DNA of 64,000 nt from Pyrinomonadaceae bacterium (GTDB taxonomy: Bacteria > Acidobacteriota > Blastocatellia > Pyrinomonadales > Pyrinomonadaceae): the NCBI GenBank assembly GCA_044230475.1, contig JBGARA010000002.1, forward strand, positions 25,975 to 89,974, given 5' to 3'. The notes beneath the pieces were generated by a model, which saw only the letters and a program-made list of their open reading frames with translations, ran no database searches and was not told the origin of the DNA. The stretch's first letter is position 1. Every line of letters starts with the position of its first letter. Below, in pieces: positions 14,016 to 36,206 of the stretch. The translations under genes and the position numbers were made by a program.

Positions 14016-14291
14016 CTTTACAGGGTCCTGTTAGGATATCAAAAAATACATCTCTGTCCAATAAAATGAGGGTATATGCCCGGGACGGCGAGCGGGTTCC
14101 CTATGATCGACCGTCTCTCATTTTATTTCTTTAAAGATCCTATCGCCGCCCATTTTATTGCGGCGAGCACCATAAACTATCACATTGATGTTTGATTTGA
14201 AACACCAATGTGTCCGATCTGACTTGATTTTCTTATTTCGACGTTCTTTTCCGAAGACGACGAGTTTCCCATCTCTGACGATGAAAAAAAG

Positions 14292-17200
14292 CTATTTTGC
14301 AGGCGGATCGTCGGAAACCTGGAAGAAATCACCGGCGCCGTCGTTAGTTTTTAGCAGGCGCATGACATCCTCGTAACCGAATGGGTGGGCCCCGCGACGG
14401 CCAAAAACGGCGATCTGGTTGCCGCTTTCGTCGGCTGCACGGTCGCGGTCGAGTCCTTTGGAGATGCCGACGGCTTCGCCCTTGGTCTTGAAAGTGGCGA
14501 TGAGCTTCGGCTCAGGACGCGGGCTGAAACCGGAGAATGTGGGCATAGTTTCGGGATCGGTAAGCTGGAGGATTTTGAGGCCGTTTTTGCCGTCAGCGAC
14601 GTAGCCGTAAAGGCTGGCGTTGGTCATCGCAACCTTGATCGAATGAGCGTCGTTTATCGAACCGTCTGCATTAAATGTTTGATCAAGCTTGGGCTGTTCG
14701 GGCTTTTCCACATCGATTATCGCAATGCCATCTTCGCCATTTGCAACGTAAGCGTAGGTGCGGGCGACGTAAATATCATGAGCGTGTGAGAGCCGCACTT
14801 CTGATCCTTCGACTTTACGGACCTCGCCGGTGGACTGAAGGTTTTTGATATCGAGTACCTCCATTCCGTCAGCATCGACGACGAATGCGTACATGAACTG
14901 CACAGCAACCGCTTTCGGATGGTTTAAGGGAACCTGTGCCGCAACTTTTGGTTGAAGCGGCGTCGAAAGATCGACGATCACAAGAGCTGTGTCAGTCGTA
15001 ATGTAAGCAAAGTTACCGGCGATTGTTATGTTGTTGGCACCATTAAGAGCGCCCTCAGGATTAAAGGTCACGGCACGTTTCAGGAAATTGTTTTGCGGGT
15101 CGCCGTCGAGCAGCGTTGCCGCATTGACCAGGATCAAACCTTCATATTTATCGGCGACAAAAAGATAGGCGTACAAAGGATGTATCGGGCCTTCCTCGTT
15201 GATCGCAGGACGCGGCTTGCCTAGTTTGTCAGCCTCGGCGTTCAGGCGTAATGCTTCGTCGGGGGGCACTTGTTTTAGCGTCCCGTCTTCATTGCGAACG
15301 GTTCGCCATCGTGCGGGATCGACCGCCAAAGTCGAAGGCGCTGCAACCGCAGCGGCGTATTTTGTCGGGACGTAAAACTTTTGGCCGATCGGCGAGACAG
15401 GTGCGGTGGTTATTCGTTCGGAAAATCCTTTGTGATCGATCTGAGCGATGTCATAAACGCGCAGGCCGCCCTTTCCTGCTGCAACGTAGGCATATTCGCC
15501 ACGCGTCTGCACCTGCAAAACTTCGGGACGGCCTTTGTTTTCGTAAACTTCTTCCAATTCGCGTCCATCGGCAACAAACTTATCGTAATTGTCCTTATAA
15601 GCAAGTTTATGAAGGTTGCTGCCATAGACGGCCTGCGGCTCGGTGTGTTCGGTGACGGCGACGGCTTCTAGTGCGTCGGTTGCGGCTATGTACACGTAGC
15701 GGCCCATGAAGTTGACGAAGTTCGTTCCTTGCAGCATGACCTGGGCGAGCCATGCATTGTTGTCTTTGTCTTTTGAAACGTGACAGTTTGAGCACGTCTG
15801 AGTTTCTTTGCCGCGAACGGTGTGCGGCACATGTGTATTGAACGCCTGACCCGAAAAACCTTCAGCAGAAATTGTTTGCTGCTGGCTGTAGATCCATTCG
15901 CGGTTCTGGTTTCTTGAGCTGACAAGAACTGCCGAACGCGAAGCAACTGGTGCAACGCGATGGCCTGTTACCGTCCCGTCGATACCGAGCATGAAAATAT
16001 CGTCACGCAGAACCTGAAAATTGTAAGACGTAAAGTTACGCGAATCGCCCCCCTCGTTATGGCGGTTTGGCATTTTGCGATTAGCTTCCATGGAAAGGTG
16101 ACAGCCGAAACAGCTCGTAACCCACGAGGTATGACACGCGTAGCAGGTCATGTTGCTGTCACGATGCGCGAGTTTGTCGTCACCGACAGCGGAATCACCC
16201 CAAGTCGCATTGTCTTTTTGGATCGTCTTAGCGTAAGCGGACGCAGGATTATAATCGCGGTTTCCTTCAGTTACGGTATCAGTCGTTTGTTTGACCCGCC
16301 ACCACAAGTCGGGATCGACGATCGAGTTTTGAACGATGTCGCCTTTTTTGAGGGCGATATCGCGACCGGCCGAATTCTTTCGTTTTGTATCAGCCTTAAT
16401 AACTTCGAGTATGAATTTCTGTTTTCCGTCAGGCGCCCGGAACTTGAGACGTGTCAGATCGCGTCCTATCAATGGCCTGCCGTCTTTGTTTCTGGCATTG
16501 ATCTCTGCCTTGTTTGTTGTTTGCATGGCAGCAAAGCCGCTCGTGATACCGTTGGCTTTTGCCTTAACCGTACCGTGGCAATCTACACAGCCGACTTCGA
16601 CCGCCGCTCGCGGTTCGTTGTAAAGAATGCCGGTGCCGTGGCTGTCTTGTTGAAAGTGACAGTCGGCACAGTGCATTCCTTTTTCGAGGTGAATGTCTTG
16701 AAGATGAACAGCTTTCTTAAATTTATCAGGATCGTTCGCGTCAACCACGCGTCCGCCAACATCAAGCAGGTTTCCTTTGCGATCTTTCTTGTAAACGTTT
16801 TTGAATACCCATCCGTGGCCGTGCGAATCGGCAAATTGAACATTTCTTAACTTGGCGTTGAAATCCGCCGTGCCTGTCTGCTGCAAGAAAACAGAATCGG
16901 ACCAAAGGCCACGAAGCGAGGACCCTTCAGGGTTTTTGTCGAGCTTTTCTTTTTCTTCTGACTGGCTCGGGTTGATCTGTTTGTCCGACGGATACATCAT
17001 CTTGCCGTCGGTCTCATTGTCCCACCACATCTGGCCGAGATACGTGGCAACCATGTTGGTGCCAGGATGCATGTGACATGTCATGCACTGAGACGTTGGA
17101 ATATTTGACGTGAATTGATGCTTGATCGGATGACCGGGTTCATTCTTAGGAATCTTTGTATCTGCCGACTGCGAAAATCCTTGATTTCCAGCAGTCGCGT

Positions 17201-18251
17201 AAGGCCCGGACGCTTTTTTGCTTGTGTCGTTTGCGTAAATGACGTGACAAGCCGTGCATCCCGCCGAGCGATAATCACCGGCATGGTCGTTAGTGCCGAG
17301 AAAATTAAGAGTCGGATCGAGTAAGCGCGTTTTTTGCAGGCCGAGATAGACCGGATCCGTTCGATTGTTTGTACCGAGGCCGCGCGGACTCAGGCCTTTG
17401 TCCGGCTTGCCGTTATCTTCGTCTCTGTCAGGATTGCCAAGTTCGAGGCGCCGTTTCCCACCGCGCTCAAAGACGCGAAGAATATTACCCGGCTGTGATA
17501 TTTCCCAACGCGGCAGCGGGTAGAGCGATTCAAGAAAGCCTTCCTTTGCCTGCTGTTCGCGAGTTGCTGCAGGCGATTGAAACAGCGCCTGCGGCTTGCC
17601 GTCCTCGCTATAGCTTTCCCCAAAATGAGTGTCCTTGATCGGAAATCCGCTGTTGTTATAAAGTGCCGCTCCCCACAACATAGCGCCGTGTGCCATCATG
17701 CTGCGCGGGCTGCGGCGAACTTCTTCGGTATGACAGCTACCACATGTCTGGCTGATAACACGAAAATCGCCGGGATTGATAAAGCGGACAAAATCGCGGC
17801 TTTCTTTTGCAAGCAGTGAGTTTGTTCGCTCGGGATTTTTGCTCGAACATTCGCCATTTTTACAGCCCCATTCTTTTGGGAAAAGCGGCTGGACATGAGC
17901 TTCTTTCTGGGTTGTTGCCGCAGGGTTACCACCGTGGCACGCGGTGCAGCTTAAGTCCTGGGCATCTTTTCCGTTCTTTAGGGTTTCGTAAACATCACCG
18001 CTGCTGTTGAATTTGTGCATCGGCTCGATGTTGTTGTGGCATTTTAGACAGCCTTCCATGGGAGCTTCATCAACCGTCTTTGGAGGTGCCGGGGCAGCGG
18101 GCAGAATTTGACGATTGGTCCTAGAAACGGGTGGATTGTCATTTATCTTTGCGAGAGCCGAGCCTTTCCATGCGGCAGCAGCCAAAAAACAGGCAAAAAT
18201 AAGCAGGACGGTCAGCTTGATCCGATTATTTGTGCTTCTACCTGCGGACAT
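14292..18251 (-). CDS. decahaem c-type cytochrome fused to a C-terminal LVIVD-repeat beta-propeller
   Basis: 1319 aa. Signal peptide ([22 protein letters not shown]). Ten CxxCH motifs: CLKCH, CTACH, CGSCH, CTACH, CMTCH, CADCH, CVDCH, CYACH, CFGCH, CSNCH. The last ~480 aa carry repeated LVIVD-type strands ([50 protein letters not shown]). Confidence 0.9.
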
Positions 18252-18270
18252 TACCTCACTCCTTAACGTG

Positions 18271-20385
18271 TTAAAAAATCAGTTTCATCTGGCTAAACAG
18301 CGAATACTGCGGCTTTGACGGATTAACAATATCGTCGTTAGAGCAAAAATTCGGTATCGGGCAGTTACGCGGTTTGTCGGTGTAAATATCCTTAAATCCT
18401 TTACCGGCAAAAAAGACGCTGCCGCCGAATGTGAACGTCACGTTGTTTATCAACCACGGGCGATAAACGACTCCGAGGCTTAAGTCGCCGCCGATCTCGT
18501 GACGAACACGCGGTTGAAATAACACATACTCAATGGATTCGGTGCGATGAAAGCGAAGATAGTTTGCATTGAACACCGCCTTGACGGTTTGCGTTATTTC
18601 AGCGTCGGCTCCGAGATTGAATATCTCGATGCCCGGGTTGACGAAATTAGCCTGACCCTCGGTCTTGCTCGACCGCAGACTTGGCAAAAGACTGTTGCCC
18701 TGAACTAATCCCACTTCGGTCGATACGAGACGAATTCCTTGTCGATTCCAGTATGAGAACTGTCCGCCGACAAAATTGGGGTCATCCAGGATCGCATCAA
18801 AGCCGTTCGCTTTGTTATCAGTCGGATCGCTGTCACCCGATGCAAAGAAAAACGATGCGCGATAACGCAGCCAGTCGCGATCTATCGATGCTTCGACGGC
18901 CGCCATGTGGGCCTTGATGTCGGTACGCTTTCCGGCTATCGGACTGAAGTCGTCGCGGCCAAATGCGAAATAATATGAATTAGACAGGTTAAGCAAACCG
19001 ATGTGGCCGTCACCGTTGAAACCAACATAACCTGCCTTGACGTTGTGCTCGCGGGCACTGCCGATCAACGCGGGACGAACGAGAAAGCCGTTCTCGTCAT
19101 AGTGAATACGCCCGCGGTCGTCGTTATATGCCGCGATGCCCTGGATCGTATAGCCTTTTGTTAAAAAGTCCTGATGGTAAAAATTGCCGATGAAAACATT
19201 CTGACGTCGCAAGTGAAATGTGTTCAGGCCGCTGTTCGTGTCTTTTTCAAGCTGATTAAAATAGGCTAGATTGAACTGATTCTTATTATTTGAAAACGCT
19301 CCGAAAAACCTGGCTCCTAAGTTATTGTCCGAATATAAAAATCCGCGAAAGTCAGCATTGAAGGACTGAATTCCAGCACGGACGAATGCCGCGTCGTAGT
19401 TGTCGTTTGTGTCGAATAGCTTCACTTCGGCAAAAGCGTCTTCGAGCGATGCGTGATAGTCGGTCCGTGTCGTTCCTCGGCGAACATCAATATTCACAAT
19501 GCCGTTTTCGCGGGCGTTGAGATAATTAGGAACGCTGAATGTCGGTGAAATTTTAATAGCCCAAGTTCGCGGACGGAAAACGGTGTCGCCCTTAAAAAAC
19601 TCGAATGACAGCTGAAGCGTTTCATTGATCGAAAGACTTTCCGGGCGGCCAAAAAAATTATTGCTGTTCGGGTCCGCTGTGCTGACATTGTTTCCCGAAG
19701 GCGTTCGTCGAATTTCGATGCCCGTCGTGCTGGTGCCGGACAAGATCATGAAATATTTGTCGCCGATGATCGGGAAATCGCCTTTTAGAACGTTCCTGTC
19801 GTAAGGGTTGTACCATGCATTTCGTCTGAAGGGGATATCACGTCCACGAGCTCCCTTGTCGCCGTAGCGATCGTATTCCGGAAACTCATAACGCCAGCGG
19901 TCGCGTACCTCGCGACGGTCGGGGATGTTTTTTGAGGCAGCCTCTGTTTTGCCGTCATCCTCAGGCTTTACTGCACTTGTATTTGCCGCCTTAAAGTCTA
20001 TCTTTCGCTCGCCGCCGTCGATGATTACGTTTTCGAGGATGGGGCATTTTTCTTTTTTCCTGTCACAGAAGACGTTGGAAAACACGCCGTATTCTACGGT
20101 CTTGCCCGGGTCAAAACGCGCTTCGAAAGGCGGAGCGACCGTTATGCGGTAAGCACCGGCTCGAAGCCGGAATGAATACTGACCGTCAGATCTAGTTACG
20201 CGCCGTTCATCATCTCCCGAGGTTTGATCCGTGACGATCACTGTGACGCCAGCGACAGGATTGCCATTTTCGTCAACGACTTTTCCGGTAAGCCGTCCGC
20301 CGGACGACTGGGCATAGTTAGTCGAAACTATTGATAAACCAAATAGGGCGAGAAAAAGAACAGTTTTCGGAAAACTCAACGACAT
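18271..20385 (-). CDS. outer-membrane beta-barrel protein with N-terminal carboxypeptidase-regulatory-like domain
   Basis: 704 aa. Signal peptide, then [24 protein letters not shown] (CarboxypepD_reg-like). Long alternating-hydrophobicity, Tyr/Gly/Asn-rich sequence. C-terminal ...SQMKLIF ends in Phe as in OM barrels. Stop lies 19 nt before the decahaem gene. Confidence 0.8.
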
Positions 20386-20536
20386 AGCGCAAATTATTCC
20401 AACAACGTGCAGGAGACAATAAATTAAAATATCTTCTAGGGTAAGTTACTGATAGTGTTTGTAACACAGTTTACGCCAAAAACCAAACACTAAATAACTT
20501 GACTATCGCGGACGTTTGTATAATAGTCAGAAAATC

Positions 20537-22198: not shown

Positions 22199-22202
22199 AC
22201 CG

Positions 22203-24990: not shown

Positions 24991-25001
24991 AACAATCCAA
25001 T

Positions 25002-25568
25002 ATGATTCGATTGAACAAACTTACGGGATTCGTGTTTTGTCTTACCGTCTGTATCGTTTTTTCTTATGATATTTCCAGATTTGGCTGGACGGGCTATTCG
25101 CACGCGTCTGTTAGACAAGGATCACCTCCAACTGCAACCCCAACAGCAACTGTGACAGCGACTGAACAATCGACCGTAAAGCCGACGCCATTCAATACTC
25201 CTGTAACTGCTAATATAAAGCAGGGTCTTGACCAGCCGATGCAATCAATCAATAAGGAACTACGTGCACTCGATGAAGATGGAGAAAAGGGACCCGTCCC
25301 TTTCGATCATGACTCGCATGCCTTTAAGGCAAGTTATAGCATCGATGGGAACTCAATCGTGGCCTGTGTGGCATGTCATCATACGGACCAACCACGAACG
25401 CCCGGGCGATTATCCGAACGCCTTGTGACCCTCACATATACAGTCTGGAAAGGCTTGGAGAACTGCACTTTATGCCATGCTAGTGCAGCGGAAAGAAGAA
25501 CAGAACTAAGGAAAAAAGCGAAATTTGCCACTAGAATCAACCAACAATGCAGTGTTTGTCATGGGTAG
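25002..25568 (+). CDS. trihaem c-type cytochrome with Thr/Pro linker
   Basis: 188 aa. Signal anchor, linker PPTATPTATVTATEQSTVKPTP, then PFDHDSHAF...CVACHHTDQP, CTLCH, CSVCH. Confidence 0.85.
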   Translation: MIRLNKLTGFVFCLTVCIVFSYDISRFGWTGYSHASVRQGSPPTATPTATVTATEQSTVKPTPFNTPVTANIKQGLDQPMQSINKELRALDEDGEKGPVPFDHDSHAFKASYSIDGNSIVACVACHHTDQPRTPGRLSERLVTLTYTVWKGLENCTLCHASAAERRTELRKKAKFATRINQQCSVCHG

Positions 25569-25588
25569 AGCTATGAGTTTTTCCAAAA

Positions 25589-26407
25589 ATGTTGACTTCA
25601 GATTCAAAAGGGTTTTTAATAAGTCGTATTATGAAAAACACAGCTAAATTGATAGTGATCTCTACTTTTGCGCTCGGGGCGCTATTTGCTTTTTTGAGCA
25701 TCAATGGTCAGGTTACGATAGGCGCGGCTGGTTTTTCCGGAGTAGCAGCACAGCCGACTCCGCCAAAAAAGACAAACTCAAATTCGGTATCGGCCAACGC
25801 CAAACCGGCGGCAAATGTAAGCACGTCCGCAAACACAATGCCGGCTAATGCTTCACCAGTAAGCACAGTATCGCCCGCGGCGACATCCGCTGCGACGCCT
25901 CTAACTTCGGCGGCAAATACAGGTACCGCAACCGGTCCGACCGGCAGCGGCAAAAAGATAACTAAATCATTCACCTTGGGTGCAGACAGCCAGTCTGAAT
26001 ACGGCGAGGCTCCGTTCGATCATGATTCACATGCCTTTATGAAATACAGCCCCGATGGCAAATCAGTTATGGGCTGTGTCGAGTGCCATCATACCGATCA
26101 ACCAAAATCGGCGATGCAGCCACCATATGTGACTTCAGAACGGGATGAGGTTCTGACTTTTGAACTATGGCAAAAATCGAATCAAAAGGTTAGTAGCTGT
26201 CGCGATTGCCATTTTCAGGATGGAAATGTTCCCGACGGAAAAACTATGCCGAAATCAGGCACTAAAGATCTGAATAATCAACTTGCGTATCACATCAACT
26301 GTAACTCGTGCCATGACGCAGCCTTTAGGGCCCGGCCAGAGCTAAAATCTCACAAAGGATTTGCAACGTCGAAGGACTGCGCCGTTTGTCACAAAGTGAA
26401 TCAATAA
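25589..26407 (+). CDS. tetrahaem c-type cytochrome (c3-like) with long Ala/Ser/Thr/Pro linker
   Basis: 272 aa (the alternative ATG 25631, MKNTAKLIV..., gives a cleaner signal peptide). PFDHDSHAF...CVECHHTDQP, CRDCH, CNSCH, CAVCH. Paralogous to the preceding gene. Confidence 0.85.
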   Translation: MLTSDSKGFLISRIMKNTAKLIVISTFALGALFAFLSINGQVTIGAAGFSGVAAQPTPPKKTNSNSVSANAKPAANVSTSANTMPANASPVSTVSPAATSAATPLTSAANTGTATGPTGSGKKITKSFTLGADSQSEYGEAPFDHDSHAFMKYSPDGKSVMGCVECHHTDQPKSAMQPPYVTSERDEVLTFELWQKSNQKVSSCRDCHFQDGNVPDGKTMPKSGTKDLNNQLAYHINCNSCHDAAFRARPELKSHKGFATSKDCAVCHKVNQ

Positions 26408-26857
26408 ATGGCCTCAAGGCAATGCGAGAAATGCGGTGAAACTGTTGACGAGGCCAAGGCATTTTGCCCAGGTTGCGGCAACGCTTTTGTTCAGGAAGAG
26501 AGACGACAGGAAGCCTCGAAGTTTGAGAAATTGGATTCCACTGTCCAGTTTGGACAGACGATGTATAATCAATTGCTCGAGGATATGGGGCTGAATATTT
26601 CAGCCGCACCAAACGCGGGCGAAAAGCGCGTCGAAGTTATAGCTCCGGTCAAGACAGAAGCAGTACCACCGAAAGCTACTCCAAGTATTCTTGTGCAGCC
26701 CGCGGTAGTACCGCCGGAAAAGAAACCTGATAAAACGGCGGCTGCGAGCAATTTGAGATTGTATATCCTGATCGGCGTGGCAGTGATCTTACTTTTGCCG
26801 ATCGCCATTGCGTCCGCGATCTTGTTTGTACTTGATATCATGTCACGTCTTAAGTAA
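26408..26857 (+). CDS. zinc-ribbon protein with C-terminal transmembrane anchor
   Basis: 149 aa. CEKCGETVDEAKAFCPGCG (CxxC-x10-CxxC), a Pro/Val-rich middle and terminal helix LYILIGVAVILLLPIAIASAILFVL. ATG immediately follows the upstream TAA. Confidence 0.65.
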   Translation: MASRQCEKCGETVDEAKAFCPGCGNAFVQEERRQEASKFEKLDSTVQFGQTMYNQLLEDMGLNISAAPNAGEKRVEVIAPVKTEAVPPKATPSILVQPAVVPPEKKPDKTAAASNLRLYILIGVAVILLLPIAIASAILFVLDIMSRLK

Positions 26858-26893
26858 GCGCATCGCAACTTTTTTCGGTAACACATACTCACA

Positions 26894-29368
26894 ATGCCAC
26901 GTGTAATAGAAAATCACGAGCAGGTAATAGAGGCATTTAGACAAGTTGACATCGTATCGGAACTTGTCGAAAAGCTGCCAAACGGCGAGTTTCGTAACGA
27001 GCTCGACATGGATATCATTCTGTTTGGCCGCAGCTATCGCGGCAAACAGGTCGGCCCATATACACGTCTGCTCGAATACACTCCCGGCGAAACCATCGTT
27101 CAGGAAAAGACATGGGAAAGCAGCATCTTTTACATCCTCGTAAAAGGCAAACTCGACGCTTCTATCACAGAACAAAGCGGGAACAGAAAAATTGTTGGCT
27201 CGATCTCTGCCGGAAGCTCTTTTGGCGAAATGGCGATGCTTTCAGGAACCCCTAGAACTGCAACGGTTTCCGTGGCAGATGAGCCTGCACTCGTTTTGGA
27301 ATTTACGCGACCCGCGATTCGGTTGCTGCGCAAGCTGCCGAAATTTGGCAAGGCTCTTGACCGCAATTACCGCAGCTATGGGCAGACGCTCACGTTGAAT
27401 GAACTAAAAGATCTCGCAAACCTGGATTTTGGAAATCCTGTTATTCAGCGATTGAACGATGCCGCGCGTTTCGCTGTCTATGAAAAAGATCATGTGTTGT
27501 TTCGCGAGGGTGACCCGATCAATCGAGTGGTGTTTGTCAAAAACGGCTGGATACAGCGCGTAAGCGGCATCGAATTTAACACAAAGGCTGCTGATCTGCT
27601 GCTCGAATCGGATGAATCGGTGGGTCTCGATTTCCTTGGAGCGGGAACTTGTCTTGGGCTAGAGGCGGTTGATGGTCCGACAAATTGGAGATATACCGCA
27701 ACTGTCGCTGGACGAACGGAGGTGCTTGAAATTGCTGTCTCACGACTGCGTGAGGACAAGGAAATGGGCTCGGTGGTCGTTCCGTTTTTGAAAGGCGCGG
27801 CTGAAAACGACGACCAGATGCCGCTGCATCCGAGCGACCCTCGTGTATTGACTGCCGCAAGCCGCGAGATCGAAACCGGTGTTGTCGATGGCGTAAATCT
27901 GCTGGTGATGGACATGGCCAAATGCATACGCTGCGGCAATTGTTCGCTTGCGTGTCATCAGGTTCATGGTCACTCGCGCCTCACGCGACGCGGCATTCAC
28001 ATCGAGCGGCCATTTAAGGCAAATAAGCCGGCAACACAAAGTGTCCTTGTGCCTACCGTTTGCATGCATTGCCAGGACCCGGAATGTTTGACCGGGTGTC
28101 CGACAGGCGCGATAGCTCGATTCCCCAATGGTGAGATCGACATCAATCCAGCAACATGCATTGGTTGCGGCGATTGCGCTACGCAGTGTCCATACAACGC
28201 GATCTCGATGATCGCCCGTCCTGACCCCAAAAACAAAAACGGCAAGGGGGCGGTGTCAAATATTTTATCCGTCTTCTCGCTCGGCAAAGCAAAATTACCA
28301 AAGCGAGTGGAGCAAACCGAAAACCTACTTGCCGTAAAATGCAATCTTTGTCACGACACGGGAATGAATCCGAAGGGAGCAAAAACCGAGACATATTCGT
28401 GTCAGGAAAATTGTCCGACCGGAGCACTTGTCCGAGTAAATCCGCGAGAATATTTCGATGAGGTCAATCAGACGATCGGCCCAATGCGTCGGAGCAAAAC
28501 ACACGCGATCGGAGTCAATATTCACAAGTTCGATCTGTGGGCGACAATCTGGCACATCTTTGGAGTCGTTTTAATTTTGGCATTTGGCGGTGCGGCTGTG
28601 TGGGCAACACGGACCTTTGCTCAGGATATTCCGCTGAGCGGCGGCGGTTGGGTGACAATGCGATGGCTGACCGGATTGACCGGACTCGCGAGTATCGTAT
28701 GGGTGATGGCCTACCCGATGAGAAAGCAAGTCTATCGTCGGCGCGCCGGAGCCTTGCGATATTGGATGCTGTCGCATATCTATCTTGGCGTTCTGGCAGG
28801 AGTTTTACTGTTGGTTCATGGAGGTACAAATTCCGGCGGGTTGCTGACGACAGCTCTTATGATCTCGTTCGATCTTGTGATCGCTAGCGGTCTTTTTGGC
28901 GCAGCTTGTTACATTATCGTGCCGCGTTTTATGACGCGGATCGAACGCGAACCTCTGTTGTTGGAAGATCTCGAAGCTCGCCGCGAAGAACTTCGTGCCG
29001 AGCTAGTTCGTGCCGCCGATCAAACGGCAAATGCGGAACTGAACCAGCTTATTCAAAAGAAAGTACGCCGCCGTTTTTTGGGGCTTGGATATCTTATCCG
29101 ACAATATCTGAAGCAAGAAGATCTGCAAACCTTACTCGCTGATGCACGAGCAGAATTTCGTTCGGCGGCTGAAGGAATGAGCCGCTCTGACGATGCACGA
29201 TTAATGGAGGCGGTGGAAAATGCTGCTACCTTGCGGCGGGTCGATGCATTGTGTTACTTGCATAAATCATTAAAGCTATGGGTTCCGCCACATGTTTTGT
29301 TTACGGCGCTTATGTTGGTGCTTATGGCGATACATATAGTTCAGGTTGTCTATTTTAACGTCAGATGA
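26894..29368 (+). CDS. cyclic-nucleotide-binding (x2) / 4x[4Fe-4S] ferredoxin (NrfC/DmsB-like) / polytopic membrane domain protein
   Basis: 824 aa. cNMP signature FGEMAMLSGTPRTATVSV plus a second, degenerate CAP-like domain. Cluster motifs CIRCGNCSLAC, CMHCQDPECLTGCP, CIGCGDCATQCP and CNLC...CQENCP. About five hydrophobic helices in the last 280 aa, several carrying His. Confidence 0.85.
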   Translation: MPRVIENHEQVIEAFRQVDIVSELVEKLPNGEFRNELDMDIILFGRSYRGKQVGPYTRLLEYTPGETIVQEKTWESSIFYILVKGKLDASITEQSGNRKIVGSISAGSSFGEMAMLSGTPRTATVSVADEPALVLEFTRPAIRLLRKLPKFGKALDRNYRSYGQTLTLNELKDLANLDFGNPVIQRLNDAARFAVYEKDHVLFREGDPINRVVFVKNGWIQRVSGIEFNTKAADLLLESDESVGLDFLGAGTCLGLEAVDGPTNWRYTATVAGRTEVLEIAVSRLREDKEMGSVVVPFLKGAAENDDQMPLHPSDPRVLTAASREIETGVVDGVNLLVMDMAKCIRCGNCSLACHQVHGHSRLTRRGIHIERPFKANKPATQSVLVPTVCMHCQDPECLTGCPTGAIARFPNGEIDINPATCIGCGDCATQCPYNAISMIARPDPKNKNGKGAVSNILSVFSLGKAKLPKRVEQTENLLAVKCNLCHDTGMNPKGAKTETYSCQENCPTGALVRVNPREYFDEVNQTIGPMRRSKTHAIGVNIHKFDLWATIWHIFGVVLILAFGGAAVWATRTFAQDIPLSGGGWVTMRWLTGLTGLASIVWVMAYPMRKQVYRRRAGALRYWMLSHIYLGVLAGVLLLVHGGTNSGGLLTTALMISFDLVIASGLFGAACYIIVPRFMTRIEREPLLLEDLEARREELRAELVRAADQTANAELNQLIQKKVRRRFLGLGYLIRQYLKQEDLQTLLADARAEFRSAAEGMSRSDDARLMEAVENAATLRRVDALCYLHKSLKLWVPPHVLFTALMLVLMAIHIVQVVYFNVR

Positions 29369-30789
29369 GCGAGCTAGAAGGAAAATTCACGATCTCATAC
29401 GCCGACCTTCTTATCAATTCCAAGTCGGTTACGAAGGATAGCATCTATATCGGACGATTGGAGACGTGCGAAATTTTTCTGAATCATAAAAGTGTCTCAA
29501 GGATCCATGCCGGGATCAGTTTTCAGGAGAATAATTACAATCTTGTAAATTTATCGACGTCGAATGTTCTTTCGCTGAATGGTCGCCGACTAAAGCCTAA
29601 ACAGTCCGATGTGCTGGCGGATGGCGATACGATCCAGATCGGTCCGTATACTATAGGCGTAGGCCGTCTTGACGATGAATTATTGCTTGTCGTCGAACAG
29701 CAGGTCAAGGACTTGGCGGAGCAAGATACATCAAAAGTTGCAAAAACTCCGACTAATGTTCATGAAGAAGCCGGCGGCGTCCTTGATGTATTTTGGGAAA
29801 AACGTTCACGTGACAAGGATGATTGGGGAACGCGGCTTCGCCCGACGGAAAAACCACAACCGGGCAAGGCTATGTTCAACTGGAAGCCGACGCATGATCT
29901 GCGTCCAACGTGGCGAGCCGGGCTGTTTATCTGGGCATTTCTTGTAGTCGGAGCGCTCGGTGTTTACGCATTTTTCCGTCACCCAGATGTTTATACATCG
30001 CGGCCGCTTTCAAATCCGCACGCATCGCAGATCGAAAACAGCACAATAGCAGTGGCAGCGAACGGAAATTCGTGTACGACTTGTCATACTCCTAACGAAC
30101 CGGTCGAAAATTCATGTATCAAATGTCATTCTGCATCGGAATTTCATTCGTCTAATACAAAGGCACACGAGACGGCCGGAATAACCTGTACGATGTGCCA
30201 TCGCGAGCATCAGGGATCTGAGTTTGATATGAAGGCCACGGCAATAAGAATGTGCGCCGAATGTCATAACGATCAAAATACAAAAACATACGACGGCAAG
30301 AAGGTGAATACGCCACATGGCGGTTCATACGGTTATCCGGTGGTTGATGGCAAGTGGCAATGGAAAGGTGTCTATCGCGAAGTTGCCGATGCGATACCTG
30401 AGATCGATCGCAGCGCTACAGGCGACAAAGATGAGCAGGCAAAACTCAGCCGACAGTTTCACACGATCCATCTTTATCGCTTGACGGCAGGTGCTCCGTT
30501 GAAAGGTGATAAACGAGGTCTCGTAACTTGTTCAACATGTCACGAAAGTTTTGGCACAAATAATGTAGACAGGGTTAAGCCGCGCCAGACGTGCGCGGTT
30601 TGCCATACTACACCTGAAAATTTGGCGGGTCGTGACAAGCGTTTCAGTTCCGGCGGAGTGAATTGCATTTCGTGTCACGTTCAGCATCCTCACAGTACCG
30701 GACGTTGGAGCGAATTTCTGACCAGTGATGCGCTTGAAAGAAGAAAGGAAGCTGTGACTAACAAGATCAAACAACTTAGCAGCCAATGA
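29365..30789 (+). CDS. FHA domain / single TM / heptahaem c-type cytochrome fusion protein
   Basis: 474 aa. FHA hallmarks IYIGR...SVSRIHA...LSLNGR...GDTIQIGPY at residues ~25-100. TM helix AGLFIWAFLVVGALGVYAFF. Seven CxxCH motifs: CTTCH, CIKCH, CTMCH, CAECH, CSTCH, CAVCH, CISCH. ATGA overlap upstream. Confidence 0.85.
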   Translation: MSELEGKFTISYADLLINSKSVTKDSIYIGRLETCEIFLNHKSVSRIHAGISFQENNYNLVNLSTSNVLSLNGRRLKPKQSDVLADGDTIQIGPYTIGVGRLDDELLLVVEQQVKDLAEQDTSKVAKTPTNVHEEAGGVLDVFWEKRSRDKDDWGTRLRPTEKPQPGKAMFNWKPTHDLRPTWRAGLFIWAFLVVGALGVYAFFRHPDVYTSRPLSNPHASQIENSTIAVAANGNSCTTCHTPNEPVENSCIKCHSASEFHSSNTKAHETAGITCTMCHREHQGSEFDMKATAIRMCAECHNDQNTKTYDGKKVNTPHGGSYGYPVVDGKWQWKGVYREVADAIPEIDRSATGDKDEQAKLSRQFHTIHLYRLTAGAPLKGDKRGLVTCSTCHESFGTNNVDRVKPRQTCAVCHTTPENLAGRDKRFSSGGVNCISCHVQHPHSTGRWSEFLTSDALERRKEAVTNKIKQLSSQ

Positions 30790-32681
30790 AGTTTTTCCAT
30801 CTATTTATTTGTATTGTGCTTATCGGCTTTCTCATTTGGCTGAACCAGGCCATTGTACCCGCCGATGCGATTCGATACGGAGGCCTTTCTTGGATCGGTT
30901 GGGCGAGCATTGGCTTGGTCGGTGTCGGATTTGGCCTGCTCCTTATTTTTAATGACACGTCGCGGGCATTTGGATTCTTTAAAGATCGTGACAAAAAAGC
31001 GGCACCTGAAACAAACATCCGAACCCTCTCAAAAGCGGAGCTTACCGAACTGGGCATCGATAAATATCGCGGCCCGTCGTACCCGCATCCGGTAATTTTT
31101 TCCGAAAGATGCATCGGCTGTCAGGCGTGTGTCGATGCATGTCCTCATGACGTGCTTGCGATAGTCGATGGGACTGCGGCGGCGGTTGCTCCCGACCTCT
31201 GCATGGAAGATACCGCCTGCCAGGCGGAGTGTCCTGTGAATCCAAAGGCGTGCATCATTATCAATACTGCCAAAGAAGTGCGCTCGATGCCGACACCAAC
31301 GCGTGACGGCACAACTTTTGAAACGAACGTTCCGGGGTGTTTTATTATCGGCGACGTCTCGGGCGTTCCCTTAATAAAAAATGCCGTTAAAGAAGGTGCC
31401 GACGTTATCGCGCACATTGTTGGCGAACTGAAGGGCGCCCCACCTGAGCCTAAGGCAGATTACGATGTTGCGATCATCGGTATTGGGCCTGGCGGGGCAT
31501 CAGCAGCGGCAGCCGCGCAGGAAGCAAATATTCGCTACATTGGTATCGAACAGACGCAAATACTGTCGACAATAGACCTGTATCCCAAGGGGAAGTACAT
31601 CTTCTTTAAGCCGGATACAAAGGACTGGTCAGGTGGAATTCCGGTTGCAGGCCTCGGCCTGTCAAAACCAAAATACGCGGCTGCGGAAGATGACGGCGAC
31701 CAACCGATCTTTGACGCGCTGGGACAGGACCTGCAAACTATCGTGCACGAACAGGCGGCTGTGCTTCACGCCGAAATGCTCGCAAAGATACCAACCTCGC
31801 TTCATGAAAAACTCGCGCCCAAACTCTCTGAAAAGGTTGAGAAGGAGCTGAAAAAAAGGATCGCCGGATTTCTACGTTCAAAGGGTTCAGTTGATTGGAC
31901 AAAAGTGTTTCAGACTCAGTTTCTTAAAGAACGTGACACTCTGCTGCCGCTTTTCCGATCGGACATCACCGATCAGCTTCAGACAAAAATTCCAGGCGAC
32001 CAGCGTGAGAACATTCTCGACATATGGCTCGGCAGCCTTGCCCAAAAAGGCGTTCGGATAAATGAAAATGAAAGCTGCAAGACGGTAAACCGGGCCGAGG
32101 ACGGCGATTATTTTGTTATCAATACCGAGCGCGGTGCTGAGAAATCACCGCAAACGTACAAAGCAAGACGAGTAATAATTGCCATCGGTCTTCGAGGTGC
32201 TCCGAATAAACTTCGGCTGCCGAATGAAGATCTGAAATTCAGGATCGAAGGCCGTGATGAGCAAAAAGTCATTTATGGTCTCTCCAATCCGGCTGATTTC
32301 TGGGGTTGTCGTATTGTTGTCGTAGGAGGCGGCAATGTCGCTGTGGAAGCTGCCGTCGATCTAGTAGCTACGCGTGACGGAGCGGCCATTGCGCCACGAA
32401 CACCCGAAATGATGAATCAGGTCACGTTGCTAGTGCGCGACTATCTGGCGCCTACTGTGAAATTTGGAAATAAATTTCAGCTGTACCAATGCGCGGACAA
32501 CGGCATCATCGATCTGCGATTTGGTGTCGGTATCAAGGAACTGCGCGAAAATGAGGTCGTTCTCGAAGACGTAAAAACGAAGAAGGAGATCGAAACAATT
32601 CCAAACGACTACGTTTTTGCTCTCATCGGTGGCGAGAGGCCGAATCGATTTTTGGAGTCGATAGGTATTACAATCAAATAA
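30786..32681 (+). CDS. membrane-anchored 4Fe-4S ferredoxin / FAD- and NAD(P)-binding oxidoreductase fusion
   Basis: 631 aa. Two N-terminal TM helices. CIGCQACVDACP and C..TACQAECP cluster motifs. Dinucleotide folds DVAIIGIGPGGASAA and RIVVVGGGNVAVEAA. TrxR-like GD motif NVPGCFIIGDVSG. Confidence 0.8.
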   Translation: MKFFHLFICIVLIGFLIWLNQAIVPADAIRYGGLSWIGWASIGLVGVGFGLLLIFNDTSRAFGFFKDRDKKAAPETNIRTLSKAELTELGIDKYRGPSYPHPVIFSERCIGCQACVDACPHDVLAIVDGTAAAVAPDLCMEDTACQAECPVNPKACIIINTAKEVRSMPTPTRDGTTFETNVPGCFIIGDVSGVPLIKNAVKEGADVIAHIVGELKGAPPEPKADYDVAIIGIGPGGASAAAAAQEANIRYIGIEQTQILSTIDLYPKGKYIFFKPDTKDWSGGIPVAGLGLSKPKYAAAEDDGDQPIFDALGQDLQTIVHEQAAVLHAEMLAKIPTSLHEKLAPKLSEKVEKELKKRIAGFLRSKGSVDWTKVFQTQFLKERDTLLPLFRSDITDQLQTKIPGDQRENILDIWLGSLAQKGVRINENESCKTVNRAEDGDYFVINTERGAEKSPQTYKARRVIIAIGLRGAPNKLRLPNEDLKFRIEGRDEQKVIYGLSNPADFWGCRIVVVGGGNVAVEAAVDLVATRDGAAIAPRTPEMMNQVTLLVRDYLAPTVKFGNKFQLYQCADNGIIDLRFGVGIKELRENEVVLEDVKTKKEIETIPNDYVFALIGGERPNRFLESIGITIK

Positions 32682-32682
32682 G

Positions 32683-33387
32683 ATGAGAAAAGACAATATC
32701 ATGTTTGTGGTGCTCGGCCTCCTTGTGGGTCTGGTGATCGGCTTTGCGGGCGCTAACAGTATCAATCGATCGGCATACGAGAAACAACCCGCTTCCACTG
32801 CGGGCAGCGATCCCAACAAAAATCCGGCACTGCCTCCCAATCATCCACCGCTTGGAGATTCCGGAGAAGAACGACCTAAAGGGGGTTCTCCCGGGCCTGA
32901 GGTTATGGCAGCCATCGAAAAGGCAAAGGCTCAACCGCAAAATTATGAGGCCCAAATGACCGCTGCTGATCTCTATTACCAGATAGAGCAGTTTGATGAT
33001 GCGGCCAAGTTCTACGAAGCGGCCTCGAAAATCAAACCTACTGAGACAGAACCTCAGATCAAAGCCGGCAATGCCTATCATGACGGCAAGAAATACGAAG
33101 AGGCAGCAAAATGGTATCTGAAGGCATTAGAAAAAGATCCTAAAAATATAGATGTCAGAACCGACCTCGGGCTCACATTCTTTCTTCGCGAACCGCCCGA
33201 TATCGAACGAGCAATAAAAGAATACAAGGCTTCTTTGGCTATCGAACCGAATCACGAAATAACTTTGCAAAATCTTGCGGTGGCCTATAGCGAGAAGAAT
33301 GACAGGGAAAATTTTCTCTCGACGTTGGAAAAGCTAAAAAAGGTCAATCCTAATAACCCCGTTGTAACAAAAAGTGACAATAAATGA
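32683..33387 (+). CDS. membrane-anchored TPR repeat protein
   Basis: 234 aa. TM helix IMFVVLGLLVGLVIGFAGA, then at least 3 TPR-like units (AADLYYQIEQFDDAAKFYEAA, AGNAYHDGKKYEEAAKWYLKALEKDP, LAVAYSEKNDRENFLSTLEKLKKVNP). Starts 1 nt after the upstream stop. Confidence 0.75.
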   Translation: MRKDNIMFVVLGLLVGLVIGFAGANSINRSAYEKQPASTAGSDPNKNPALPPNHPPLGDSGEERPKGGSPGPEVMAAIEKAKAQPQNYEAQMTAADLYYQIEQFDDAAKFYEAASKIKPTETEPQIKAGNAYHDGKKYEEAAKWYLKALEKDPKNIDVRTDLGLTFFLREPPDIERAIKEYKASLAIEPNHEITLQNLAVAYSEKNDRENFLSTLEKLKKVNPNNPVVTKSDNK

Positions 33388-35974: not shown

Positions 35975-36206
35975 TTAGTTCTATGGTTACAGGGTATTTT
36001 GGTATCGTTTAGCGACGAATCCAAACACATAACTGTACTACATCATCCGACATTTTGACAGGAAAATATTCAATCCGCTTATAGAACATTTATGTTACTC
36101 AGCGAGGGTAAATATGTGACGGATAACATTGTGAGTTGCATCCATCATGCATCCGGTGTTTGTTGCTCAACTTTCCCTCTGCGCTGCTGCAACTCCCGCT
36201 GCTTAC

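Follow-up and report, generated by a model that had tools for sequence, protein, structure and literature searches.

Cytochrome b and the NOX/ferric-reductase domains share a di-haem arrangement built on paired membrane histidines. The outer-membrane barrel MtrB, according to a preprint, consists of 26 strands. In the window, the whole 64,000-nucleotide stretch of Pyrinomonadaceae DNA analysed here, a first-pass annotation had read positions 14292-33387 as a candidate envelope-spanning electron conduit with domain fusions matching no described system. Its list of parts, their linkage and their novelty stand, its iron-sulfur and gene counts were slightly off, and its porin step is not supported. 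No product attains the curated threshold for any of the Mtr, Hmc, Tmc, Qrc, Dsr and Nrf families tested, nor for profiles for characterised nitrite, sulfite and tetrathionate reductases, and a literature search found no published description of a system with these domain fusions. We read the island as a regulated chain that would move electrons across the envelope, with an inner-membrane unit that bypasses the quinone pool, and we favour this reading with moderate confidence.

Gene layout and cofactor content

The island, conserved in soil Acidobacteria, consists of 13 genes in two divergent operons, encoding haem c cytochromes, iron-sulfur proteins, a flavoprotein and an outer-membrane barrel. 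Pfam domains and predicted topologies agree with the parts first annotated.

A, 14292..18251, minus strand: secreted protein of 1319 aa; decahaem region ~60-830, LVIVD beta-propeller ~900-1319
B, 18271..20385, minus strand: outer-membrane protein of 704 aa; signal peptide, CarboxypepD_reg domain, ~18-strand barrel
C, 20516 (TTG; or ATG 20537)..22198, plus strand: secreted tandem GlcG/HbpS-like (DUF336) protein
D, 22203..22991, plus strand: secreted, family unassigned; seven conserved Cys
E, 22988..24085, plus strand: periplasmic nonahaem cytochrome, c3/c7-type
F, 24082..24990, plus strand: nonahaem cytochrome of three c7-type trihaem units; probable lipoprotein
G, 25002..25568, plus strand: trihaem c3-like domain, Thr/Pro-rich tether; paralogue of H
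H, 25589..26407, plus strand: tetrahaem c3-like domain, long Ala/Ser/Thr/Pro-rich tether; N-terminal anchor or signal
I, 26408..26857, plus strand: cytoplasmic zinc ribbon (four invariant Cys), C-terminal membrane anchor
J, 26894..29368, plus strand: two cytoplasmic cNMP-binding domains, four-cluster [4Fe-4S] ferredoxin domain, five-helix membrane domain
K, 29365..30789, plus strand: FHA domain in the cytoplasm, single membrane helix (182-206), periplasmic heptahaem bis-His domain
L, 30786..32681, plus strand: two N-terminal membrane helices, 2x[4Fe-4S] ferredoxin, thioredoxin-reductase/YpdA-like FAD and NAD(P)H flavoprotein
M, 32683..33387, plus strand: N-terminal membrane anchor and TPR domain
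B/C divergent intergenic region, 20386..20536, no strand: sequence inspected
Hairpin, 14181..14212, minus strand: 13-bp stem immediately 3' of A

The minus operon holds B and A, separated by 19 nt. The plus operon runs from C to M with gaps of -4 to +36 nt and ATGA overlaps at 22988, 24082, 29365 and 30786. A check of the open reading frames reproduced the divergent arrangement, positions, gaps and overlaps first annotated, and it gave the plus operon 11 genes, not 12. The hairpin is a possible terminator of the minus operon, and a single sigma-70-like match lies at 20499-20527 (+); neither the hairpin scan nor the promoter scan was overall above chance. The island is flanked by an asparagine-synthase-like gene, a LuxR-type regulator and an exopolysaccharide cluster.

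Six proteins carry the 42 CxxCH haem c motifs (A 10, E 9, F 9, G 3, H 4, K 7). On recounting, the first-pass figure proved correct, and it lies far above the 0.18 motifs on average (maximum 2) obtained when the residues of the 13 proteins are shuffled; each haem Cys is conserved at 94-100% across 16-72 orthologues. A 43rd CxxCH, at residue 483 of J, is part of an iron-sulfur Cys motif, and its His is kept in 10% of orthologues. Conserved distal His residues equal or nearly equal the haems in F (9/9), H (4/4), G (3/3), K (7/7) and E (8/9), a tally typical of low-potential c3/c7 wires. Conserved Cys sets predict six [4Fe-4S] clusters, four in J and two in L, where eight or more motifs had been annotated.

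The J-K-L inner-membrane unit

Pfam recognises cNMP_binding in two stretches of J (90.8 bits) together with 4Fe-4S domains, and no Pfam family matches its membrane part. Sixteen Cys and His628, His642, His800 and His814 are invariant in 27 sequences with identity down to 22%. The histidines form two His-x13-His pairs (14-residue spacing), in helices 621-643 and 797-823; positive-inside topology places both helices in the same orientation and the iron-sulfur domain in the cytoplasm. This is the layout of the di-haem arrangement in cytochrome b and NOX/ferric-reductase domains and suggests that J binds two b haems. Within J-K-L, no protein other than J has conserved His pairs in its membrane helices of the kind that ligate b haems. 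The AF2 model of J (pLDDT 83, pTM 0.81), searched whole with Foldseek, matched cNMP domains only, its tandem CNB domains resembling PKA-R (E=4e-11). These regulatory domains look functional, with the FGE...R-T-A phosphate-binding cassette retained (G111 and E112 invariant, R121 at least 90% conserved).

K combines an FHA domain (55 bits in Pfam), predicted to be cytoplasmic, with haems predicted to be periplasmic. All seven CxxCH are present in 72/72 orthologues, and seven distal His are conserved. The FHA domain also looks functional, judging from the conserved pThr-binding residues G30, R31, S45, R46, H48, N72 and G73. Genes for a Ser/Thr kinase or a PP2C phosphatase are frequent neighbours, as in L085, L093, L094 and the P0149 context. 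L matches Fer4 and Pyr_redox_2/3 in Pfam, with NCBIfam in support, its eight ferredoxin Cys are invariant, and both its iron-sulfur and FAD domains are predicted to be cytoplasmic. Its closest PDB entries are 7a76 and 7a7b (TrxR/Bdr), 3ab1 and 2zbw (TrxR-like) and PsaC; the depositors of 3ab1 named it a ferredoxin-NADP reductase. K and L are fused in at least two loci of other lineages, L086 and L094, into one polypeptide ordered as FHAs, TM, seven haems, TM, ferredoxin and flavoprotein, the two TM segments and seven CxxCH having been counted in L086 alone, not L094. These fusions and the predicted topology indicate that K and L cooperate from the two sides of the membrane. The fusions and the invariant His pairs of J support transmembrane electron transfer. 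J-K-L is the most novel part of the island, as we found no described system to match it.

The genes of the island are linked in 79 Blastocatellia/Pyrinomonadaceae loci, rearranged ones included, so that their co-conservation extends through at least three gene orders in Blastocatellia. In L038, L039, L041 and L056, J-K-L is followed by A, and B lies past A where the contig extends (L038, L041, L056). A single run of genes in L069 comprises B, A and a paralogue of K, and the rearranged L068 retains the divergent B/C pair. J adjoins its FHA-heptahaem partner in the 79 Blastocatellia loci and also in distant lineages (L080, L085, L083, L086, L087, L094 and the P0149 context), including NCBI 'Deltaproteobacteria bacterium' MAG records (in the L080 cluster), Myxococcota-like contigs and other metagenome contigs. 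F-like cytochromes adjoin J there, with nine haems in L080, L085 and L087 and seven in L086, and in the P0149 context a 1355-aa LVIVD protein lies 3' of the J/FHA genes. The distant clusters, outside Blastocatellia, yielded no homologue of B or C; the general part is the J-K(-L)-cytochrome core only.

Periplasmic carriers, the decahaem protein and the barrel

E, F, G and H together carry 25 haems. E, with nine CxxCH and eight conserved distal His, matches Pfam Cytochrome_C7 and Mtrc-MtrF_II-IV_dom. F scores 50.6 against a cut-off of 40 for TIGR04257 (nanowire_3heme). Its closest PDB entries are cytochrome c7 and the 'cytochrome c family protein' entries 3ouq and 3oue, which we take to be GSU1996 fragments. 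Cys27 of F is 89% conserved, and the protein is probably a lipoprotein. G has three haem motifs here against four in 14/16 aligned sequences (window counted), some of the four-haem relatives possibly being cross-matches to paralogue H.

C, D, I and M would be accessory. Pfam finds HbpS-like in three stretches of C, which among PDB entries lies nearest to GlcG/EfgA and to one described as a putative extracellular haem-binding protein. D matches nothing in Pfam or NCBIfam, and its Cys 76, 98, 103, 219, 244, 254 and 259 are 98-100% conserved among 42 orthologues. The zinc ribbon of I is a weak Pfam match, and I is missing from the more distant Blastocatellia group. M, co-conserved in 53 loci, matches TPR families, with TPR_CcmH_CycH below threshold (28 bits, cut-off 42); it possibly acts in cytochrome maturation as an NrfG/CcmI-like apocytochrome chaperone.

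After its signal peptide, B has an Ig-like CarboxypepD_reg domain in the periplasm (30-135; recognised by Pfam), which a conserved low-confidence linker (139-203) joins to a barrel ending ...MKLIF. Its homologues are 72-88% identical among the matches listed, the named ones being Pyrinomonadaceae or Acidobacteriota MAGs. The barrel matches no Pfam family and gives no MtrB_PioB signal. Its AF2 model has 18 long strands at moderate confidence (pLDDT 61.6) and, unlike MtrB, resembles AlgE (Foldseek best match, E=9e-15), chitoporin, ScrY and OccK channels. A barrel of 18 strands would probably leave too little room for a multihaem protein inside it. Given this likeness to substrate porins and the larger barrel of MtrB, a crossing of the outer membrane by a sheathed cytochrome is unlikely, and the Mtr/Pcc-like porin step first proposed finds no backing here.

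A contains LVIVD (73 bits in Pfam) and ten CxxCH that are invariant in four orthologues. It is 66-77% identical to its orthologues even where K is merely 38-55% identical, with long invariant non-haem stretches and about one haem per 85 residues. These features are enzyme-like, and the conservation of A, higher than that of the wire cytochromes, is easier to reconcile with an enzyme than with a passive wire. No lipobox in A passes the PROSITE rule and no anchor is recognised, so A may remain periplasmic. These features raise the alternative of a periplasmic reductase, in which the propeller of A forms or supports a catalytic site, B is a substrate-specific 18-strand channel that admits the substrate, and J-K-L and E to H do no more than feed NAD(P)H electrons to A. 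The soluble substrate could be an oxyanion, a peroxide, a chelated metal, or a species of sulfur or a chalcogen. The character of the barrel favours it, as do weak, sub-threshold matches of A to Geobacter ExtM/ExtN; a pentahaem protein encoded in the neighbouring Geobacter ext operon turned out to be a polysulfide reductase (PMC13510729). However, A matches neither the NrfA, OTR, HAO and MccA-type families nor, by sequence or by profile, any PDB structure. No CxxCK or other atypical haem motif occurs in the island proteins, and A has enough invariant His for bis-His ligation of ten haems. In addition, LVIVD is in Pfam a repeat of cell-surface proteins, according to a preprint, and 25 haems of periplasmic wire seem too many for reducing a soluble substrate. 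We regard a reductase as an unlikely but credible reading.

The proposed electron path and its direction

In the regulated transmembrane chain that we favour, L would exchange electrons between NAD(P)H and FAD in the cytoplasm and then pass them over its two [4Fe-4S] clusters. J would carry them over four more clusters and across the membrane on two b haems, the first ligated by His628/His800 towards the cytoplasm and the second by His642/His814 towards the periplasm. K, anchored beside J, would accept them in the periplasm on its seven bis-His c haems. The c7/c3-type carriers would bridge the periplasm, with flexible tethers holding G and H and a lipid anchor probably holding F, and the chain would end at A, paired with the outer-membrane barrel B.

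Because the cofactors of such a chain are reversible, electrons might also run inwards. Extracellular or periplasmic donors (reduced humics, Fe(II) or a dehydrogenase of the periplasm, for instance) would load the c haems, and the membrane potential, which favours inward electron movement, would help to drive the electrons via the b haems and iron-sulfur clusters of J to L to reduce NAD(P)+, a cytoplasmic ferredoxin or a thiol. The relatives of L include a TrxR-type ferredoxin-NADP reductase, and such enzymes work in both directions. The L087 cluster includes a PQQ-type GSDH dihaem dehydrogenase, encoded between the halves of a split J, which could point to periplasmic electron entry in some lineages; the cluster in the window, however, has no such dehydrogenase. 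Low potentials are expected of the predicted bis-His c3/c7 haems, whereas the oxidising (uptake) chains that are known rely on His/Met haems of high potential, and the hosts are heterotrophs with no obvious need of reverse electron flow. We consider uptake improbable.

The cytochromes could, alternatively, inform J, K and L of redox conditions in the envelope or environment; the cNMP and FHA domains of these proteins would tie such conditions to cAMP and Ser/Thr-kinase signalling, and the island would then be a sensor or signalling device, not a bulk pathway. Two kinds of signalling domain do sit in the core, and the kinase or phosphatase neighbours recur in several lineages. C belongs to the HbpS-like family, which has a role in redox sensing in Streptomyces. 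However, 42 haems, six iron-sulfur clusters and a flavoprotein far exceed known sensors, cNMP and FHA domains are ligand-binding input modules and the island lacks an output domain, and J, at 75-87% identity among the 120 homologues that match it best, is conserved to a degree that suggests a central role in metabolism. A sensing function strikes us as very improbable. That barrel, propeller cytochrome and plus operon are chance neighbours would fit the negative result for B and C homologues in the distant clusters, but it is hardly credible given that the linkage outlasts the rearranged gene orders, that J has a linked LVIVD protein in the P0149 context too and that the flanking genes are conserved in the closest relatives only.

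For the regulated chain, a role in anaerobic metal respiration is not obvious, since cultured Pyrinomonadaceae are described as aerobes. Electron flow is likely to be outward, as a controlled sink that passes reducing equivalents to an acceptor in the periplasm or outside the cell. Through the cNMP domains of J and the FHA domain of K, this flow would be controlled by a second messenger and by Ser/Thr phosphorylation. Such control would make sense because outward electron flow spends both NAD(P)H and membrane potential.

Gene layout and linkage of the island

The island occupies 14292-33387, where a two-gene operon on the minus strand (B-A) diverges from a plus-strand operon (C-M). Its 13 genes are lettered A to M, and those at the ends of the two operons are as follows:

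18271-20385, minus strand: B, predicted outer-membrane barrel, 704 aa
14292-18251, minus strand: A, decahaem/LVIVD-propeller protein, 1319 aa, 19 nt after B
20516/20537-22198, plus strand: C, GlcG/HbpS-like protein with alternative starts, first gene of the plus operon
32683-33387, plus strand: M, TPR protein, last gene of the plus operon (ORF map)

Within the plus operon the intergenic gaps run from -4 to +36 nt, with start/stop ATGA overlaps at 22988, 24082, 29365 and 30786. A promoter and terminator scan gave nothing above chance. CxxCH motifs total 42: ten in A, nine each in E and F, three in G, four in H and seven in K. Residue shuffles of the 13 proteins gave a mean of 0.18 and a maximum of 2, and haem Cys conservation is 94-100% at every site (16-72 orthologues). 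The variants CxxCK, Cx3CH and Cx4CH are absent from the island cytochromes. A CxxCH at residue 483 of J was considered as a 43rd haem site and rejected; it is the Cys motif of the fourth FeS cluster, and only 10% of orthologues retain its His. From conserved Cys sets we count four [4Fe-4S] clusters in J and another two in L. The 42 haem motifs and the divergent ORF map of the first-pass annotation thus stand, but its twelve plus-operon genes are eleven and its 'eight-plus' FeS clusters are six.

In Pfam and NCBIfam, A matches the LVIVD propeller and B, at its N-terminus, CarboxypepD_reg; C has three stretches like HbpS/GlcG, and E-H match c3/c7-type cytochrome families. The zinc ribbon match of I is weak. 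J combines two cNMP-binding domains with a four-cluster ferredoxin, K an FHA with a cytochrome domain and L Fer4 with Pyr_redox_2/3, and M has TPR. The Cys-rich D has no family match in either collection, only a chance-level Pfam match at E<=10.

Scanning one genome per species gave 131 K relatives, and 79 loci were kept. All are from MAGs labelled Pyrinomonadaceae, Pyrinomonadales, Blastocatellia, 'Chloracidobacterium' or just Acidobacteriota/Acidobacteria, the closest being MAGs labelled Chloracidobacterium or Pyrinomonadaceae (K identity 78-80%). By tblastn of the window proteins, C-D-E-F-G-H-I-J-K-L-M is collinear in about 45 of the 79 loci, and B is divergent from C in most loci whose flank reaches far enough. 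In L038, L039, L041 and L056, A comes after J-K-L on the other strand, and in the three loci whose contig is long enough (L038, L041, L056) B lies beyond it. A more distant group (K about 38% identical) has J-K-L and then H, G, F, E, D and M on the opposite strand; one locus, L068, retains the divergent B/C pair beside this block. A second, shorter arrangement occurs in a Pyrinomonadaceae MAG (L069, 1521-10125), in which B, an IS200-like Y1 transposase, A and a K paralogue share one strand, with no J or L within 10 kb downstream of the run. From this arrangement, the outer module may be mobile or duplicated and have a direct tie to a K-type cytochrome. Because linkage survives rearrangement, the lack of co-conservation that was to count against the conduit reading is not borne out.

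The genes flanking the island in the window, dockerin/cohesin upstream and asparagine-synthase-like and LuxR-type regulator genes downstream, do not recur beyond the closest relatives. Directly downstream of A, 11151-14015 (minus) encodes a 954-aa secreted protein with a beta-helix, dockerin, cohesin and Thr/Pro-rich repeat linker (TPTATFTPTATFTPTATFTPTPTP), which has no match in those related loci that contain A. LuxR/GerE-type response regulators at 35222-35974 (minus) and 37260-37982 (plus) lie either side of an apparently ORF-poor, lower-GC stretch (GC 0.44 at 36001-38000), and the former recurs in the closest relatives only (L001, L051). The window holds two asparagine-synthase-family genes. 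That at 33404-35146 (minus) is convergent with M and is a weak, divergent member (Asn_synthase 54 bits), and that at 44877-46637 (plus) is a full-scoring member within a long co-directional exopolysaccharide/capsule synthesis gene cluster (38444 to about 63000, plus). Cluster products, identified up to 49815, include Wza-like Poly_export/SLBB and Wzc-like GNVR/AAA tyrosine-kinase-type proteins, NeuB, UDP-GlcNAc 2-epimerase, CMP-sugar cytidylyltransferase, asparagine synthase, ABC-2/Wzt transporter and PhyH-like dioxygenase. The first ten genes of the cluster were unmatched in relatives in the flank comparison.

The J-K-L inner-membrane unit

The best 120 matching homologues of J, the cNMP/FeS/membrane protein, are 75-100% identical, and a search of 1.8 billion representative proteins yielded full-length relatives at 22-33% identity as well as split versions. 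Across 27 aligned sequences (22-81% identity) all 16 FeS Cys are invariant, together with His628, His642, His800 and His814. The latter form two pairs of spacing 14 (His-x13-His) and lie, in an AF2 model (pLDDT 83, pTM 0.81), on helices 621-643 and 797-823. By the positive-inside rule, the cNMP and FeS domains at the N-terminus are cytoplasmic, as is the helical insert 690-795, and both His-bearing helices are predicted to run from inside to outside, that is, in parallel. Two His-x13-His pairs on two parallel helices constitute the di-haem arrangement of cytochrome b and NOX/ferric-reductase domains, and because of this match we infer that J binds two b haems stacked across the membrane. Within the unit, conserved transmembrane His pairs, as expected for b-haem ligation, occur in J alone. 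Its membrane domain matches no Pfam family, Ferric_reduct included, at E<=10, and Foldseek with the full model returned cNMP-domain matches only.

Both J and K carry domains of a regulatory kind. PF00027 matches two stretches of J (90.8 bits against a cut-off of 27.5), and these tandem domains superpose on PKA regulatory subunits (Foldseek E=4e-11). Domain 1 retains the phosphate-binding cassette (FGE...R[ST]A), with G111 and E112 invariant and R121 at least 90% conserved; domain 2 is without FGE. By modelled fold and cassette, J has a CAP/PKA-R-type cyclic-nucleotide-binding domain, whose ligand may be cAMP or cGMP. K consists of an FHA domain, a single membrane helix and a heptahaem part for which seven distal His are conserved (72 orthologues). 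Its FHA domain scores 55.2 bits for PF00498 against a cut-off of 20.7, and in the same number of orthologues the pThr-binding residues G30, R31, S45, R46, N72 and G73 never vary and H48 is retained in 97%, as expected of a phosphothreonine-binding FHA domain.

L, the TM-ferredoxin-flavoprotein, begins with two helices and a basic stretch, and its eight ferredoxin Cys are invariant. The flavoprotein part is above cut-off for Pyr_redox_3 (91 bits) and Pyr_redox_2 (78 bits) and is closest to TrxR/YpdA-type enzymes, among them a deposited TrxR-type ferredoxin-NADP reductase; the corresponding equivalogs score under cut-off (YpdA 117/340, TrxR 39/343). Putative FAD (GIGPGG) and NAD(P)H (GGGNVA) motifs can be read in the sequence.

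Versions of the unit also occur outside Blastocatellia. The 90%-identity protein cluster containing the J homologue of L080 holds NCBI records labelled 'Deltaproteobacteria bacterium', and related homologues are labelled Kofleriaceae or Myxococcales. L080 and L085 each have an F-like nonahaem cytochrome, J and a protein of two FHA domains, a TM helix and seven haems, and the soil loci L083/L084 have J and a K-like heptahaem protein. In L087 (10001-14901) J is split into a 480-aa soluble cNMP/FeS protein and, encoded separately, a 308-aa membrane protein with 29% identity to J residues 553-818, with a PQQ-type GSDH dihaem dehydrogenase gene between the two halves; also present are a K-like protein and nonahaem and 14-haem cytochromes, the 14-haem one upstream and with a LysM domain. 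L093 combines a Ser/Thr kinase, J and an L-like protein. The gene context of P0149, a distant J homologue (JGI 3300047160), includes three c7-type cytochromes, J, a 1384-aa protein (four FHA domains plus Fer4), a 1355-aa LVIVD protein and a kinase; a metagenome scan with P0149 gave short contigs only.

In L086 (12245-15946) and L094 (8878-12393), J adjoins a fused K-L polypeptide comprising three or four FHA domains, a c-type cytochrome region, a ferredoxin and a TrxR-like flavoprotein. The fusion counted in L086 has seven CxxCH and two TM segments, one before and one after the haem region. Such fusions tie the periplasmic heptahaem domain and the cytoplasmic ferredoxin-flavoprotein into one machine and are the strongest single argument for a J-K-L unit. 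Signalling genes lie close by, a PP2C phosphatase in L094 and Ser/Thr kinases in the P0149 context, L093 and L085, and their recurrence fits a working FHA domain.

Periplasmic cytochromes and the outer-membrane step

F is built of three c7-type trihaem units with nine haems. It exceeds the cut-off of TIGR04257 (nanowire_3heme; 50.6 bits versus 40), under which G (16.8) and H (19.4) fall, and its nearest PDB entries are 3ouq and 3oue, which we take to be fragments of GSU1996, together with cytochrome c7. Lipid attachment may occur at Cys27 of F, which is conserved to 89%. The tandem paralogues G and H have small c3-like domains on long Thr/Pro/Ala-rich low-complexity tethers. G has three CxxCH in the window against four in 14 of 16 aligned sequences (window included), some of which are possibly cross-matches to H; the missing motif corresponds to the third haem site of H. 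The number of conserved distal His equals that of the haems in F, G, H and K and is eight for nine in E. Since these counts match, the wire haems are predicted to be bis-His and low-potential.

B is, on the strength of its AF2 model, an outer-membrane barrel. The model is of moderate confidence (pLDDT 61.6, pTM 0.54) and was built on a shallow alignment of at least 73% identity; it starts with an Ig-like sandwich, continues with a linker (139-203) that is conserved but left unmodelled, and has 18 long strands and the typical Phe at the end. The first-ranked Foldseek match is AlgE (E=9e-15, target TM-score about 0.6-0.68), followed by chitoporin, ScrY and OccK porins, and MtrB is absent from the top 50 matches. 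The barrel part matches no Pfam family, MtrB_PioB included, at E<=10, and B has no PDB match by sequence. MtrB, for comparison, has 26 strands (bioRxiv 10.1101/2022.05.06.490989). The Mtr-like porin of the first-pass annotation is therefore not supported, and with a barrel in the size class of 18 strands a sheathed cytochrome as in MtrAB is unlikely. By hhalign, no relation emerged between the B profile and candidate barrels of the distant clusters (583 aa in L087, 511 aa in L080).

The linker of B is Arg/Asp/Tyr-rich and nearly invariant in aligned homologues (R158, D162-R165, P169, Y171, R173-D176, R182, D183 and others), and its AF2 confidence is very low despite this near-invariance. It may serve to dock a partner such as A or act as a plug for it. 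A link between an AlgE-like B and the downstream exopolysaccharide cluster was also considered and rejected, as the cluster was undetected in the 79 related loci, whose 10-kb flank ends just short of the cluster's start in the window.

A is among the most conserved products of the island, 66-77% identical where K is 38-55%, and long non-haem stretches of it are invariant. It has no PDB match by sequence or by a four-sequence profile, and its Mtrc-MtrF_II-IV_dom match extends over only 57 residues (33 bits). As read from the sequence, its signal peptide has no lipobox passing the PROSITE rule. Membership of A in ExtM/ExtN was rejected on weak matches (68 bits versus a cut-off of 800). Such a conserved protein beside a porin-like barrel can also be read as a periplasmic reductase, A being the enzyme and B its substrate channel. 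A has no family-level match to periplasmic reductases (NrfH 17.7/134, pentahaem NrfB 19.5/184), and none of the characterised enzymes that might have explained the cytochromes away (NrfA/NrfH, octahaem tetrathionate/nitrite reductase, HAO, MccA) was recognised in the island; we consider the reductase reading unlikely, though it is the strongest of the rivals.

For the reading of the island as a conduit, electron passage over the outer membrane, including whether there is any, is the weakest link. The interpretation first proposed from sequence is thus upheld in part: support is strong for a conserved, regulated transmembrane redox machine, whereas its Mtr-like outer-membrane step and the direction of flow remain weak.

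Known systems, proposed electron path and meaning

MtrCAB and the Geobacter Pcc/Ext systems share with the island multihaem c cytochromes beside an outer-membrane barrel gene, periplasmic multihaem carriers and an envelope-crossing logic. The island differs in its AlgE-like barrel of about 18 strands rather than 26, in the fusion of a decahaem region to a beta-propeller in A, and at the inner membrane. There, entry in MtrCAB/Pcc is by a quinol dehydrogenase (CymA, ImcH, CbcL), whereas the island has an FeS, putative haem b and flavoprotein unit. The MtrA/DmsE family is not reached (TIGR03508: K 36 and F 19 bits, cut-off 192), nor is OmcA/MtrC (TIGR03507) by A, with H at only 15 bits versus 209. 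F resembles the Geobacter periplasmic c7 family (PpcA, polymeric GSU1996) in its c7-type trihaem units and best PDB matches, but has nine haems rather than three or twelve, is probably lipid-anchored and is of low identity; it does not reach the CytC7_Geobact equivalog (22 bits versus 120).

Hmc, Tmc, Qrc and DsrMKJOP move electrons over the inner membrane by means of periplasmic c3-type cytochromes, a four-cluster FeS protein of the NrfC/DsrO type and a membrane subunit with two b haems, a combination that the island would share. However, the four-cluster domain of J is predicted to be cytoplasmic (no Tat signal, cNMP domains before it) and is fused to the putative b-type membrane domain, and the island has an additional flavoprotein and cNMP and FHA domains. 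All equivalogs of these complexes score under cut-off (HmcA 14-17/400, HmcB 40/420, TmcA 18-25/114, QrcA 31/180, QrcC 33/400, DsrO 62/200), and Pfam and NCBIfam find no NrfD-like or CCG-domain (HdrD-like) subunit in the 13 products. In NOX/ferric-reductase proteins and E. coli MsrQ-Fre, electrons pass from cytoplasmic NAD(P)H to flavin, to two b haems (or one) ligated by His pairs of two parallel helices, and to an outside acceptor without a quinone. J-K-L would resemble these enzymes in such a quinone-free NAD(P)H/flavin/b-haem path. The flavoprotein L, however, is a subunit of its own and resembles TrxR more than FNR, six FeS clusters would stand between flavin and haems, the acceptor would be a heptahaem cytochrome c, and J has no Ferric_reduct Pfam signal.

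Of the published gene blocks, the Tenderiales uet cluster comes closest to the island, judging from the accessible portion of its description. As described there, the Candidatus Tenderia uet and Desulfovibrio ferrophilus NHL-propeller/cytochrome clusters have, like the island, a large multihaem cytochrome, c7-type trihaem proteins, beta-propellers, a barrel and an NrfG-like TPR gene. Their propellers are NHL-type and separate proteins, whereas that of A is fused; the uet barrel is predicted to have 28 strands, and the same portion of text names no J-, K- or L-type unit and no cNMP/FHA domains (bioRxiv 10.1101/2022.05.06.490989). The island would thus be hybrid-like, its inner-membrane logic recalling Tmc/Hmc/Dsr and NOX/MsrQ-Fre and its envelope wiring Mtr/Pcc/Uet. 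We would place it outside these families because equivalog scores are far under cut-offs, NrfD, CCG, MtrB_PioB and Ferric_reduct signals are missing, and the barrel is of a different size class. The suspicion that its fusions match no described system is sustained, as the architecture of J, K and L was found nowhere in the full-text literature searched, nor was there a precedent in it for cNMP and FHA control built into an electron conduit.

In the path we propose, NAD(P)H would reduce L (FAD and two FeS clusters), which would pass electrons to J, whose four FeS clusters and two b haems would carry them across the membrane to the seven c haems of K. From there they would flow to E, F, G and H (25 c haems) and on to A (10 c haems and the propeller), acting with B. 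We regard such an outward chain from NAD(P)H over the inner membrane to A/B as somewhat probable. An outward direction is favoured because the haems are predicted to be low-potential, because the cytoplasmic end resembles an NAD(P)H/ferredoxin module, and because spending NAD(P)H and membrane potential needs tight control, as the cNMP and FHA domains suggest. Inward electron uptake through the same carriers is improbable. A redox sensor, to which the cNMP and FHA domains might belong, has to be matched with 42 conserved haems, and we give it little credence. Chance adjacency of the genes, beside linkage kept through rearrangement, is hardly credible.

More tentatively than the outward chain itself, J-K-L could represent a previously unrecognised class of inner-membrane redox complex, a quinone-independent NAD(P)H:cytochrome c transmembrane wire (FAD, six FeS, two b and seven c haems) gated by cAMP/cGMP and phosphothreonine. 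It would occur widely among the Blastocatellia, a group abundant in soil, and among Myxococcota-like lineages, and in Pyrinomonadaceae would feed a new outer-membrane module (18-strand barrel plus decahaem-propeller), giving supposed strict aerobes a switchable route to extracellular acceptors. The inner-membrane unit may deserve recognition as its own family. For bacteria without CymA, ImcH or Cbc-type quinol dehydrogenases, we know of no inner-membrane route for electrons to periplasmic cytochromes, and J-K-L is a candidate, directly testable new answer. A conduit under cNMP/FHA control could also be used as a switchable part in bioelectronic engineering.

Blastocatellia/Pyrinomonadaceae are common in soils and biocrusts, and cultured members are described as aerobic heterotrophs. 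They are also common in wastewater systems (activated sludge), where a survey of Acidobacteriota found large multihaem proteins of unknown substrate in all its MAGs (PMC8100337). If true, a conserved, regulated 42-haem chain from cytoplasm to outer membrane would change models of the redox ecology of Blastocatellia/Pyrinomonadaceae, for example in iron, manganese and humic cycling and in survival under limiting oxygen.
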